Below, piece after piece: positions 53,301-59,300 of a stretch of DNA of 64,000 nucleotides. The stretch comes from Escherichia coli (GTDB lineage: Bacteria; Pseudomonadota; Gammaproteobacteria; Enterobacterales; Enterobacteriaceae): the NCBI RefSeq assembly GCF_041248615.1, contig NZ_CP158425.1; one strand, written 5' to 3'. Made by a program: the position numbers. Numbering within the stretch: the first letter of the stretch is position 1; each line of letters opens with the position of its first letter.

Positions 53301-56300
53301 TTCACTTCTTCCTGAGCTTGTCTGAGTTCAGCATCCCGGATTACCTTATGGTCGGGTTCAAATACAAAACTGGACAGAAAATCCTTAACCAGGAAGCGAT
53401 GCTCTCGCATTTCTTTGCCACGTTCCCTACGGTAGCCACTGCTGTCTTCAGTGACAATAGCAACAGTCTGACCGTAAACGCGGGGATGGGCGCGTAGAAT
53501 TACTGTATGCAGCTTATCTTCAACGTAACGCAAAGACGTAATGAGCAGTGTATCCCCTGCCACAATACCCTCTTCAGGGATGCTGTCAGTGGACGTCCAG
53601 TACTGACCCGCCAGCAAAGAATGAAATCGCTCTAAACGGTCAATGCTATTTTTGCTGACCAGGTCACCCATATACTTTTCCTTCCAGATTCGTGTGTTAG
53701 GTGAATCATACCAGATTGCCCTTGCCGTCTAATAACGCAGAAAACTGTGAATCCAAAATTCCTTAAATTCAAACCTGTCCAATATAAAAGATGGCTCTTT
53801 TTCTTATCCAGTGTTAAGCGATAATGCTCAATTTTATTTCATTATTGTCAGAATCAAAATAATCTGAAAATAAAAAAGGCTTCAGAATTGAAGCCTCTAT
53901 ATTATACAACGTGAATGTATTTTATTTATCTTTCACCGGGTTCATTTCCCAGTATCTTTCACGTACGTTTTCTTGGCAATGGTCCGCTCGCTCCGGCGTG
54001 TCCCTTTTACGAGTAGCAAATGCTTCAATTACGGCATTCAAGTCTTTTTCTTTGATTTTAGATCCAACAGGCAAGTTTTCTTCAAACTCAGTCCTTACCA
54101 GTTCTTTCGTTTTTTTATAATCGGTTTCACTTTGGATTTCAGGTTTTAAACAAATATCGGCAACCATCACATCTGATTTGCCCGGGATCGGTTTTTTCCC
54201 GTTTTCAGATGCAAGGACCGCAGAGGAGGTAAAGGCGACAGACAGAGTTGCACATAACAGAAGGTATTTTAATTTCATGACTCACTCCATGATTATCAAT
54301 GATGGTTGCTCAGACACATCATTTATACCATGCCTGTCACCGAATACGAGATCCCCATATTTTGGCTTTAAATATTATCCAATAGGGTTTCATACACCTG
54401 GCTTCTGAAAGCAAGGTTCAAGGAGCTTCAGGGGGAAATCAGATTGTTGTCGACCCAGTACTTGTGCAAACCTACCACCCAATTCCTGGAAATGGACGAA
54501 AGTTCATGCGCCAGTTCACGACAGCATTCAGGCGTAAAAATACGTATGGGTCCTGAAGTACCGATATCAACAGACATGATAAACTCCAGAATGTTGCCAT
54601 GGCATAGGTTGTTTCTCAGCCTGACAATTTCTGCTTCAGGTGTTCTCCCGGCTGCTACCTTAACCAACATATCCTGCTCGGCTGGAAATGAAAGTAATTC
54701 TACCGGCACCCCTTCCTGCTTGGCCTTTCTCAGTAAGGCATTACTCATTACGGAGATACCCTCCAAGTCCACCAGCTCAGGAGCTGCATGCTGATCGTTA
54801 ACTGTTGGTTTCAGCATCAGCGACTTCAACGTAACCATGAGTGATGTTTCAATCCCGTTCAGGAAGCTCGTACAGGCCGGTATCCATAGTTCGTGATGCA
54901 ACGCCTCGGTTGCTTGTTTAAAGAACCAGTCAATCACGGGGACAGTGTGATAATCATAATAGTGATTTATCTCGCTGAATCTTGACATATAAGCATCGTA
55001 CTCAGCCTGGTCTTCAGGAGATAAAAAATTTGGTGGGAGGGGCATCAGAATCCTTTCATCCTAGCTTGTATACCTTCTTCGTAGGCCAGCTCGCCATTAT
55101 CGGTAAAAGATGGTTTTTGGTGTTTGTGACAAAGCTTAATTTTTCGTCAGGCTCGATAGCGTTACCGGAGAGATTTGATCTTTTCTCTGTAACTCGCAAT
55201 ACTGTTTATACATACAGTATGAGAATTCGAGTGTAGCTATGTCTGTTATCCTTGAGCACATTAGCAACAAGCCTTACGAAATGGCACCTTTTTTCAGTGA
55301 TTTACTGAGCTGTGGAGTGATGAGTCCGTGCGCCGGGCATGAAGATAATGAATTAAATTTGCATGAATATGTAGTCCGTAACCGCCCCTCAACCTTCTTT
55401 GTCAGGGCGGCGGGCCTCAGTATGATCAATGCCGGTATCAATGATGGCGCTATTCTGGTTGTGGATCGGTCTTTAACGGCACGACACGGCTCTATCGTCG
55501 TTGCGCTGGTGGATGGAGAGTTCACGGTAAAGATCTTACACACGTATCCTGAGCTGCTTTTGATGCCTTCTAATCCAGCCTATAAGCCGATACGTGTAAA
55601 TCCCGAATCCCTTGAGATATGGGGCGTCGTCACCTTTGCACTGAATCAGTTTAGCCATGTACATGCACGTTGATATTAACGGGGCCTATGCGGCATTTGA
55701 GTGTGCGATGGATCCCAAGCTGGCAAAAAAGCCGCTCATCATAGCCAGCAATAACGATTCGTCCGTCATTGCAATGAATAAACTGGCTAAAAGCGTTGGT
55801 ATTAAGCGTGGGACCCCAATTTTTAAGTGCAGGGATTTGATTCAGCAACACCAGATCGAAGTCCGGAGCTCTAACTTTACTTTGTATGAAGACTACTCAA
55901 ATCGCTTCCATGAAACGCTGGAAAGCTTCGCGCCTCAATCGAGTCGATATAGCATAGATGAAAATTTCATGTTATTGAAAAACATGAACAAGATAATAGA
56001 TTATGAAGATTACGGCCGGTTGATCAGAAGTACACTTCTTCATAATCTGTCCCTTACCTGTGGTGTGGGGTGTTCAAGCACCAAAACCCTGGCTAAATTA
56101 TGCACCTATGCGAGCAAACGATGGGCAGCTACAGGCGGGGTTGTAGTTTTGACTGATCAGGCCAGGATCAGGAAGCTCCTGGGCCTTATCAGTACCAGAG
56201 AAATATGGGGTATTGGTCAAAAGATCAGTGAACGCCTGTCGGCTTTCGGGATCATCACTGCCGGTGATTTTTATAATAGCGACGTTCGCTTTTTACGTAA

Positions 56301-59300
56301 AAGCTTTGGCGTTGAAATCGAGCGTACCTGGCGGGAACTGCATGGCGAACCATGTTTCCGGCTGCATGAATCCCCTCCTGTCCGGCAACAGATTATCGTT
56401 TCCAGAAGTTTTGGTCAGCGCCTTAATGAGATAGGCAAGCTACATGAGGCAGTTTCATTTTTTACCGCCCGGGCGGCAGAGCAGCTGCGCAAGGATGGCT
56501 CGTGGACCCGTCAAATCACAGTCTTCATTCAGAGCAGCAATTATGCGCAAGGTGAAAACCGCTACAGCAATTGTGGTATCGAGCCGCTTACCGCTACACA
56601 GGACACCCGCGATCTGGTTGATGCAGCCATGACCATCCTGAACCGCATTTACAAACCCGGGATAGCGTATGCGAAAGCTGGGGTAATGCTCTCCGCTATG
56701 ACTGACGGCACAGAGCAACTCAGCCTGTTTGATGAGCGCCCGGCCAGGCCTGGCAGTCAGGCACTGATGAAAGTTATGGACCGGTTCAATAAAGAAAAGC
56801 GCGGAGCTCTGTTTTTGCTGGGGGAAGGCATTCAACAGGATTTTCGTATGAAACAGGCCATGCTATCACCGAGATATACGACCCGCTGGGATGAATTACT
56901 CGTTGTAAAAGCGTAGCGGCCATGACCGGCATGGCCGTACTCATCAAAAGTGAAAGTAACTTTAGGCCCCGCGAGCTTTTTCGATTGCGCCCTGCAAAGT
57001 TGCTGCGTCCATAGCCCCGGGGATAAATGTGGTAGTCGCCGCATTCGGCTTTTTCATATTCATAATGATGAAGCCGGGTGTGCCGGTGATCCCAAGCGCT
57101 TCGCCCAGCTGCATGTTGCCGGAGATCACGTTTTCATATCGGTTTTTTTCCCTGTCAGAAAACGTGCTGTTAAACCCTGACTTATCCACCACAGTATTAA
57201 AGTCGCTGAGTTCGAATTTGCGTTGAGAGGTCATGAAGGTATGAGCCACAGCCATCAGGTTGTTGTGGTATTTACGATAGGCTTCAGCACCGAAATTCTG
57301 ATAGACGTGCAGACCCGTAGCGGCCCCCATGGCAGATACAGGTTTTGAACCGGCAAAAATCGGGAATTCTTTAAAGAAGAATTTTACATCTTTGCTCTGA
57401 TTCATTACCGATTCAACAACAGGTGTAACCCGCATGCAGTAAATACACTGATAGTCGAAGAACTCGATTACCGCGACGTCGGCGTCATCCGGGCCGATGT
57501 TTGGCGTCTCCTTGGTATCCAGCAGAGCTGGCGCATATGGAATTATTCGTTCCACTGAGGCACTTACGTTCTGATTTTCCAGCGCCTTACCTGCTTCCAC
57601 TAAATAATGGGGATTTTTTACCAGGTAAGTAGCGGCAATTTTGCCAATTTCTTCCTCACTGAGCACCTTCGGTTTAAAATAAGTTGCCGCGATTAACGCC
57701 GAGGCAGCGGTAGCAATTACCGCAGAAATTAAAATCGTGGCCATCGGTTTTAAATAAAATTCTTTAGACATAGCTACCTTTATGCTTTTCAGCCTGTTAG
57801 TTATTAACCTGCGATGGATTATACTGGCCCGGTAAATCGGAATTATTCGTGAAACAATGCTTTTTGGAGATTAAAGGATGATTAGGCAGGGCTTTATACT
57901 CACAACCGCAATGCTTTTGAGTGGTTGTGGATATCATTTCGCAAACCAGGTAGATGCGTACGATCTAATGCCTCGTCCTGTTACAAATAAAAGGTTTCAG
58001 ATAGTCCCTCCGGACGAAAGTATTCAGTCCAGAATGTTTTCAGGCCGTTTTGCTGATGGATTAGCAAAAAAAGGAGTCATTATTTCCACTCACCAGCCAG
58101 ATTATGTGCTCAGGTTCCGAATGAGCAGCTCACAGGAGAACATGCAGTATAGCGAGCAGCTTCTTACTGGGGTGACAGGCTACGTTGTAGATAAAAAGAC
58201 AACGAGAACTGACAAGCATGGCGAATCGCATACTGACTATGACTACAGGCCGGTCGATGGGGTAATAGGCACTGAGACGATGTCGCAGATGCACTATATG
58301 CGACAGCTGGATGTCGAGGTATACCCGTCAGCGAAAGGAGCAAAGCAGGTTCTGAAAGTGAGTATGCAAAGCAATGCACCTGTGCCGTCAGACAGCATTG
58401 CTTATTCAGCAATGATCGACGCCTTTACTGATAAATTTGATGCGCCGCTGCGTTCCGGAAATTATGTTGCAGTGATCCCCTGGAACTGAAAGCAGACGGC
58501 GGGAAGAGAATGTTCAAAAGTGACTTTTGGACACGCACATAAACGTGGCTATCGCCCTCCCCCATTAAAATCATAAAGTCGGTAAAGATCGCCCATCGTG
58601 ATGGAATTGGGCTTATTAATGATTAGATACTGTAACTGTTCTTTATGTTGAGTACTGGCGGCTGCATTCATAAGCACTTCCAGGTAGAACTTGTAGCCTA
58701 TGCTTCGCTCTGAATACATATACTGGAACTGCAACAGTAAAATGCCTGACATAACATACAACAGCAGCAGACTGAGTAACACAGTGCTATCAGGCTGTTC
58801 CAGTGCCATACTGACATACCCTGAACCCAGAATGCACAGAAGCCAACCCGTCATTAGAGCAGGCACCCTACGACTCAGACGTTCATAACAACGTTTTATT
58901 ACGGGATCCCGGAGATACTTTTTGTCAGGTATCCCCGTTGCCCTGATGACGAAGTTACTGAGTATCGACATCTTTTTTCCTTCTGGACGCTCTCAGTCAA
59001 TAAATCAGGCCAGGCGCTCATTGAAAGCTACCACGAGCTGCGAATCGGGATTTTTTACCAGTTCGGGCCGGATAACTTTTAGTTGCCTCGTTGGGGCGAG
59101 CTCATCTGTAGGCCTGATGGTGGTATTACCCGGCCCCTTGCGGGTACTGTCGGTGTTTACCTTGAGCTTTTTATTTCCCAGGTAGCTTTCCATCTTTTTA
59201 GAGATGGTGTCACCTGTGGTCGCAACACCAGAGAGTTCCTTTAGTTGTTCACCTTGATCCATTTGTACCGATGACATCAGAAATACGATTCCTGGATCGT

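Follow-up and report, generated by a model that had tools for sequence, protein, structure and literature searches.

A probable LexA-controlled umuDC-type DNA polymerase V operon in the backbone of an IncHI2 resistance plasmid of Escherichia coli

Introduction

In Escherichia coli K-12, umuD and umuC form a two-gene operon in which the stop of the first gene and the start of the second are coupled by an overlap of 1 nt, and which is preceded by a LexA box, TACTGTATATAAAAACAGTA, with two mismatches to the consensus. The K-12 promoter has a TTGATC-N17-TACTGT layout in which the -10 element overlaps the start of the box. Orthologues of the encoded DNA polymerase V (Pol V) also occur on mobile elements, namely MucAB (Pol RI) of the IncN plasmids pKM101/R46 and RumAB (Rum pol) of the integrative and conjugative element (ICE) R391/SXT. 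RumAB resides on an integrative element with additional element-encoded repressors, SetR and CroS, and the Rum polymerase of R391 was reported to make antibiotic resistance evolve faster (PMC11602152). Here we describe a umuDC-type operon within a 64,000-nt stretch of E. coli DNA (contig NZ_CP158425.1; hereafter, the window), which is identical over its whole length to positions 96,001-160,000 of plasmid p14408_M1 (IncHI2A, MOBH, MPF_F) of E. coli NRZ14408.

We consider it highly probable, from the sequence evidence set out below, that this operon is a backbone umuDC-type Pol V orthologue of an IncHI2 plasmid under host SOS control. The operon is ordinary and already known: it is annotated in hundreds of public records, the Prokaryotic Genome Annotation Pipeline (PGAP) already labels both genes (umuD, WP_000111290.1; umuC, WP_042634445.1), and papers on R478-type plasmids name the same operon mucAB (PMC5955447). 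What we add is confirmation, together with a defined model of promoter and operator and a set of residues that can be tested, rather than a discovery.

Results

Both proteins scored above curated NCBIfam cut-offs, which are 110 bits for the Pol V autoproteolytic subunit (NF007621) and 431 bits for UmuC (NF002955; scores in Table 1). They were 41.7% and 47.4% identical to K-12 UmuD and UmuC, respectively. Peptidase_S24 (PF00717, residues 21-131) was the only domain of the UmuD-like protein, which has no DNA-binding domain, and the UmuC-like protein matched PF00817, PF11799 and PF13438 (DUF4113, residues 368-417, E=1.8e-17). Several other identities were considered and rejected. For the UmuD-like protein these were LexA (60 bits against a cut-off of 111), HumD (69 bits against 120) and an SOS regulator of the type of Acinetobacter UmuDAb, which is defined in PMC4807011 by fusion of the S24 domain to an extended DNA-binding domain at the N terminus; our protein is 144 residues long, its S24 domain is preceded by an arm of 20 residues, and it contains no other domain. 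For the UmuC-like protein, a Pol IV identity was rejected because every DinB (Pol IV) model scored far below its cut-off.

A sequence-only reading of this DNA had held the self-cleavage residues of UmuD and the catalytic acidic residues of UmuC to be intact, and both claims were borne out. Alignment to UmuD structures (PDB 8gmt_B and 1umu) placed Cys25-Gly26, Ser61 and Lys98 at the positions of the UmuD cleavage bond and catalytic dyad, and the motif SCG is kept in all five UmuD proteins of the clade described below; cleavage at this bond is predicted to yield a UmuD' of 119 aa. Asp6, Asp101 and Glu102 of the UmuC-like protein are present in alignment A1, which comprises 25 sequences including the E. 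coli-type UmuC P0037 (98.3% identical to K-12). The Cys-Gly site, the Ser/Lys dyad, the residues D6/Y11/D101/E102 and the DUF4113 tail are all shared with K-12 UmuDC, as is a clamp motif of the form QLxLF, which reads QLNLF at residues 357-361 of K-12 UmuC and QLSLF here. A sequence search of the PDB found UmuD and UmuD' and no UmuC chain, the best polymerase matches being DinB, Dpo4 and Pol iota.

Unlike K-12 umuDC, the window operon encodes Ala at position 10 of UmuC (Phe10 in K-12) and a five-residue tail on UmuD, and it occupies a plasmid site beside transfer genes. At positions 10-11, Phe-Tyr was found in 93 of 120 homologues, Met-Tyr in 10, one of which we take to be MucB-type, and Ala-Tyr in nine, all of them members of the same clade as the window protein. 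Every full-length clade member has Ala10, and two other homologues (P0028 and P0072) have Ala-Phe. The idea that Ala10 is a defect was rejected because this position varies naturally among homologues (Phe, Met, His).

The polymerase homologues resolved into a tight clade at 67-100% identity, with all others at or below 51% (nearest non-clade homologue, 51%). Plasmid genes annotated as mucB were 45.6-46.4% identical to the window UmuC. Membership of the MucAB subfamily was rejected, the window protein being no closer to these genes than to K-12 UmuC; on these identities, the name mucAB for the R478/IncHI2 operon is a label and not a statement of orthology. The protein pair appears to constitute a distinct subfamily confined to IncHI-type plasmids and no closer to MucAB than to UmuDC, and the operon very probably encodes a LexA-repressed Pol V orthologue of that subfamily, which is 47% identical to UmuC and has Ala10 beside the steric gate. 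Belonging to the same clade, the IncHI1 (R27-type) pair is 84% (UmuC) and 81% (UmuD) identical to that of the window and has the same 17-nt gene overlap, neighbours, -35 element and box position.

Sites resembling the LexA operator were sought with the consensus TACTG(TA)5CAGTA, using 100 dinucleotide-preserving shuffles of the window as the null. Two sites with at most three mismatches were found in the 64 kb, compared with 0.00 expected. One of them, TACTGTTTATACATACAGTA, matches the consensus at 18 of 20 positions, as many as the K-12 box, and also fits the pattern CTGT-N8-ACAG, of which the window has four examples compared with 0.61 expected. The near-consensus LexA site that the sequence-only reading had placed 20 bp before umuD is therefore real in these terms, with the distance corrected to 19 nt between the box and the umuD ATG (55239).

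A consensus promoter scan of 55000-57100 with a threshold of 9/12 reported no promoter upstream of umuD, because the predicted -35 and -10 hexamers together match 8 of 12 consensus positions; phylogenetic footprinting took its place. The window locus was compared with relatives at 84% (IncHI1), 72%, 72% and 67% UmuC identity. The intergenic DNA of the five loci is mostly unalignable, except for the 10-mer TTTGATCTTT, which is unchanged in all five while its flanks diverge, and, past a 17-nt spacer that is unrelated between loci, RATACTG...CAGT. A CTG-N10-CAG box stands in the same position in all five. The spacing of the predicted hexamers, and the overlap of the -10 with the start of the box, are those of the K-12 promoter, and the box would cover both the predicted -10 and the start site; conservation is what we observe in this region, and the hexamer assignment and LexA binding are what we infer. 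In IncHI2 plasmid pH11, umuD is separated from an intact operator by a group II intron in sense orientation, a position that fits a transcript start upstream of 55220.

The figure of 17 nt for the overlap between umuD and umuC, also given by the sequence-only reading, holds if UmuC starts at Met1, a start that is supported by the alignment with K-12 UmuC, in which the two Asp6 residues coincide. In some public records the annotated start of UmuC is the in-frame Met3 (55663), which shortens the overlap to 11 nt. In the relatives at 67-72% identity (L003, L004 and L005), umuD ends in NQF, NQY or HEF, with the stop codon just before the umuC ATG. Both the overlap and the five-residue C-terminal UmuD tail (SHVHAR; window 55659-55673) occur in IncHI1 and IncHI2 only, a distribution which indicates that they are derived, a stop codon having been lost in the common ancestor of these two groups. 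No convincing intrinsic terminator was found after umuC, as the hairpin at 56916-56938 lacks a U-tract and has a fold z-score of -0.98.

Both genes are under strong purifying selection. Synonymous differences (pS) in UmuC between the five loci are saturated, at 0.70-0.85, and nonsynonymous differences (pN) are 0.10-0.24 for UmuC and 0.04-0.23 for UmuD, compared with pS of at least 0.70. We report pN against pS because synonymous sites are saturated and dN/dS was computable for three pairs only, in which it was 0.02-0.05. The gene order umuD-umuC-DsbA-203aa-...-DsbC-SLT-TraG_N is kept in all four relatives. In L005, the most distant member at 67% identity, a SRAP gene (YedK-like, SOS-response-associated peptidase) at 4763-5431 lies directly upstream of the box and umuD, an arrangement suggestive of a small damage-tolerance cluster on this plasmid.

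Table 1. Positions of the operon's features in the window, and of intron junctions at related operators.
Feature	Position	Strand	Remarks
Predicted -35 hexamer TTGATC	55175..55180	+	inside the invariant 10-mer (55174-55183)
Predicted -10 hexamer AATACT (RATACT in relatives)	55198..55203	+	17 nt past the -35; overlaps left arm of box
Putative LexA operator (SOS box)	55200..55219	.	2 mismatches to consensus; same place in five related loci
umuD-like gene, 144 aa, S24 autoproteolytic subunit	55239..55673	+	PF00717 E=2e-24; NF007621 129.8 bits
Cys25-Gly26 codons, predicted self-cleavage bond	55311..55316	+	aligns with UmuD Cys24-Gly25
Ser61 codon, predicted nucleophile (UmuD Ser60)	55419..55421	+	GxSM motif conserved
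Lys98 codon, predicted general base (UmuD Lys97)	55530..55532	+	FTVK in all clade members
umuD/umuC overlap, 17 nt	55657..55673	+	likely translational-coupling site
umuC-like gene, 419 aa, Y-family catalytic subunit	55657..56916	+	Pfam IMS, IMS_C, DUF4113; NF002955 464.7 bits
Active-site motif D6-I-N-G-A10-Y11	55672..55689	+	catalytic Asp6, clade-specific Ala10, steric-gate Tyr11; alignment A1
Catalytic Asp101-Glu102 codons (SIDE motif)	55957..55962	+	invariant columns in alignment A1
Predicted beta-clamp-binding motif QLSLF, residues 354-358	56716..56730	+	Q354, L357 and F358 invariant in alignment A1
GC-rich inverted repeat between convergent umuC and DsbA-like genes	56916..56938	.	9-bp stem, no U-tract, weak
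Intron site, IncHI2 pH11	L010:1069-1092		
Intron site, IncHI2 pKC25-20925	L009	minus	
Intron site, IncL/M pOXA48_L111	L013:4007-4031		
Intron site, IncF pKOX-137	L014:4028-4052		

Within the IncHI2 backbone, the operon is about 4 kb past the end of a resistance island that spans about 34 kb (roughly 17.6-51.2 kb of the window), an arrangement that agrees with the sequence-only reading of a plasmid-borne operon near resistance cargo. The island carries tet(A), mef(B), strAB, aph(3')-Ia, aac(3)-IIe and blaTEM-1 together with a class 1 integron (estX-aadA2-cmlA1-aadA1-qacL-sul3), and the window as a whole holds at least eleven resistance genes. On its other side the operon adjoins transfer genes encoding DsbA-like, DsbC-like, lytic transglycosylase (SLT) and TraG_N proteins. 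No Pfam or NCBIfam match was found for the open reading frames (ORFs) at 54428-55045, 57878-58489, 13786-14247 and 14277-14684.

Many IncHI2 plasmids carry the 1.9-kb umuDC region at 100% identity. Matches to it were found in about 945 PLSDB records, of which 900 cover at least 80% of its length and about 50 have the query split into two places. There are two main alleles in IncHI2, at 100% and about 98.1% identity; the latter has the same box, -35 and UmuD as the window and six substitutions in UmuC. More broadly, a protein search found genes for Pol V orthologues in at least 5,000 of 72,556 plasmid records.

At 13562-13581 the window has a second strong LexA-like box, TACTGTATGTATGTACAGCA, with three mismatches and a chance expectation of none. 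It is followed after 204 nt by two backbone ORFs, 13786-14247 and 14277-14684. This box is found together with the first of these ORFs in about 640 plasmid records, and matches at 94.6% identity, mostly from Enterobacter plasmids of IncHI2 size, share the second ORF only. One of the CTGT-N8-ACAG sites, GACTGTTTTTTTGTACAGTC (23990-24009), precedes the start codon of intI1 by 12 nt, and we take it to be the LexA site reported to control the class 1 integron integrase. The window thus contains at least two putative SOS-responsive units, with a third possible. The only Rfam match over the gathering threshold in the window was an AAC_AAD_leader (putative aminoglycoside riboswitch / attI site; 24069-24144, 61.8 bits) in the attI region of the integron.

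Comparison of umuDC loci between plasmids also revealed insertions at the operator itself. A group II intron (ltrA; 5′ end GTGCGCCGGGAGACCGG) sits exactly after ...ACAGT of LexA boxes beside umuD-family genes; both orientations occur among the four plasmid backbones concerned (Table 1). In pH11 it starts with GTGCG right after ...ACAGT, in the same orientation as umuD; upstream of it both the -35 and the box are intact, and backbone sequence continues precisely where the intron ends. In pKC25-20925 the same intron is reversed and occupies the opposite arm of the palindrome, and in pOXA48_L111 and pKOX-137 it again comes after a LexA box that has a umuD or impA gene as its neighbor; the antisense copies are those of pOXA-48, an IncF plasmid and the IncHI2 plasmid pKC25-20925. 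In a spread sample of the at least 5,000 plasmids that match the junction, nearly all intron copies are preceded by the box sequence. In the searchable literature we found no account of introns that target SOS boxes. The pattern resembles site-specific homing at Pol V operators, of which the window box would be an uninterrupted (empty) copy.

A second type of insertion was seen in the IncHI2 plasmid pKC25-20925_262kb (L009:2940-3034), where ISKox3 (ISL3 family) lies inside the umuDC LexA box and removes its left arm together with the promoter; ISKox3 was likewise found in the box of H62 (NZ_CP071012.1). In one IncHI2 plasmid, mucA was reported to be truncated through insertion of an accessory module (PMC5955447). 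Together, these cases suggest that the operator region is an insertion hotspot.

Discussion

All features of a umuDC-type operon that can be tested on sequence were found here, including an operator that overlaps the promoter, which is seen at the sequence level only. The view that the operon looks functional, taken in the sequence-only reading, agrees in its sequence-testable parts with family scores above curated cut-offs, intact residues, purifying selection and a conserved operator. These observations are consistent with the following model. A host LexA dimer bound to the box would block the TTGATC/AATACT promoter. DNA damage, or incoming conjugative single-stranded DNA (ssDNA), would generate activated RecA (RecA*), LexA would cleave itself, and a two-gene mRNA would be made, in which translation of umuC would be coupled to that of umuD through the overlap. 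As a dimer on RecA*, the 144-aa UmuD-like protein would then be expected to cut its own Cys25-Gly26 bond by means of Ser61 and Lys98, which would give the 119-aa UmuD'. Two UmuD' subunits and the UmuC-like subunit would take up RecA-ATP and dock on the beta clamp through QLSLF, and the resulting UmuD'2C-like complex may, to judge by its motifs, copy across lesions at low fidelity.

Several observations weigh against this interpretation or against its having strong effects. The predicted promoter falls below the threshold of the consensus scan, and the Shine-Dalgarno sequences are weak. The IncHI1 box, TACTGGTTAAATATCCAGTA, has symmetrical CTGG-N8-CCAG arms and is probably a weaker site. In about 5% of IncHI2 records the copy of the operon is truncated or interrupted, so the operon is dispensable, and in some it is parted from its operator. 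Since Ala10 occupies the site at which F10L affects fidelity and sugar selection in UmuC, the potency of the window polymerase cannot be extrapolated from that of UmuC. The plasmid also encodes an H-NS family protein, and R391 rumAB is described in PMC8460599 as strongly suppressed in its natural context. Finally, no experimental test of an IncHI umuDC/mucAB polymerase was found in the searchable literature.

Some of these points bear on the strongest alternative, which we consider possible though not favored: the operon may be intact and LexA-regulated but phenotypically cryptic on its native plasmid, held down by plasmid or host factors such as the H-NS family protein or temperature-dependent IncHI regulation, in which case carriage of the plasmid would give no measurable rise in induced mutagenesis. 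A gene for an H-NS family nucleoid-associated protein is present in the backbone at 1735-2139 (minus strand), and its product could silence AT-rich plasmid promoters, including the umuDC promoter region with its G+C content of 40%; the weak promoter and ribosome-binding sites point the same way. There is also a precedent in rumAB, a potent mutator when subcloned that renders cells poorly mutable from native R391 (PMC11602152, PMC8460599). However, no SetR- or CroS-like repressor site was identified at the operon, and the strong purifying selection seen throughout the family, on the operator as on both genes, implies that the products are used.

Rather less likely, in our judgment, is that the polymerase is active but has its fidelity or sugar selection altered by Ala10 beside Tyr11, making it a weak mutator or a specialized bypass enzyme. 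The F10L substitution in E. coli UmuC gave higher fidelity and stronger ribonucleotide exclusion (PMC3401427), and the combination Ala10-Tyr11 is fixed in the full-length clade members and present in no other of the 120 homologues. Against this, the residue at position 10 varies naturally, with Met in ten homologues, MucB-type included, and MucAB is described as a strong mutator in PMC6495647.

We regard it as unlikely that the plasmid itself, rather than the host's mutation supply, is the main beneficiary of the operon, through rescue of damaged or newly transferred plasmid DNA after SOS induction by incoming ssDNA. Such a role would explain the fixed site by the transfer genes, as the DsbA/DsbC/SLT/TraG_N linkage is kept in all five loci despite saturation, and the SRAP gene of L005, which encodes a YedK-like abasic-site protein, lies directly upstream of umuD. 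The argument is one of position, however, and Pol V orthologues are found on at least 5,000 plasmids of many types without linkage to transfer genes.

A reading of the box as a palindrome that arose by chance and of the genes as decaying remnants, for which nothing but the weak promoter consensus speaks, is effectively refuted by the absence of boxes expected by chance, an operator kept across saturated divergence, two intact frames with scores above curated thresholds and pN far below pS.

A LexA-regulated Pol V orthologue hence remains the reading we favor, and two further ideas are put forward tentatively. First, the LexA operators of plasmid Pol V genes may also serve as specific homing targets for a group II intron that is widespread in enterobacteria; in the sense orientation the intron would lie in the 5′ UTR (untranslated region) and splicing would restore SOS control, while in the antisense orientation umuD would be cut off from its promoter and operator. 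If true, homing at operators would create natural on/off variants of plasmid-borne mutagenesis. Second, and separately, the IncHI Pol V, with its Ala10, may differ from E. coli Pol V in fidelity or sugar selectivity.

IncHI2 plasmids are large conjugative multidrug-resistance plasmids on which mcr-1 and mcr-9 have been described. An SOS-inducible error-prone polymerase in their backbone could raise the supply of mutations under DNA-damaging antibiotics such as quinolones.

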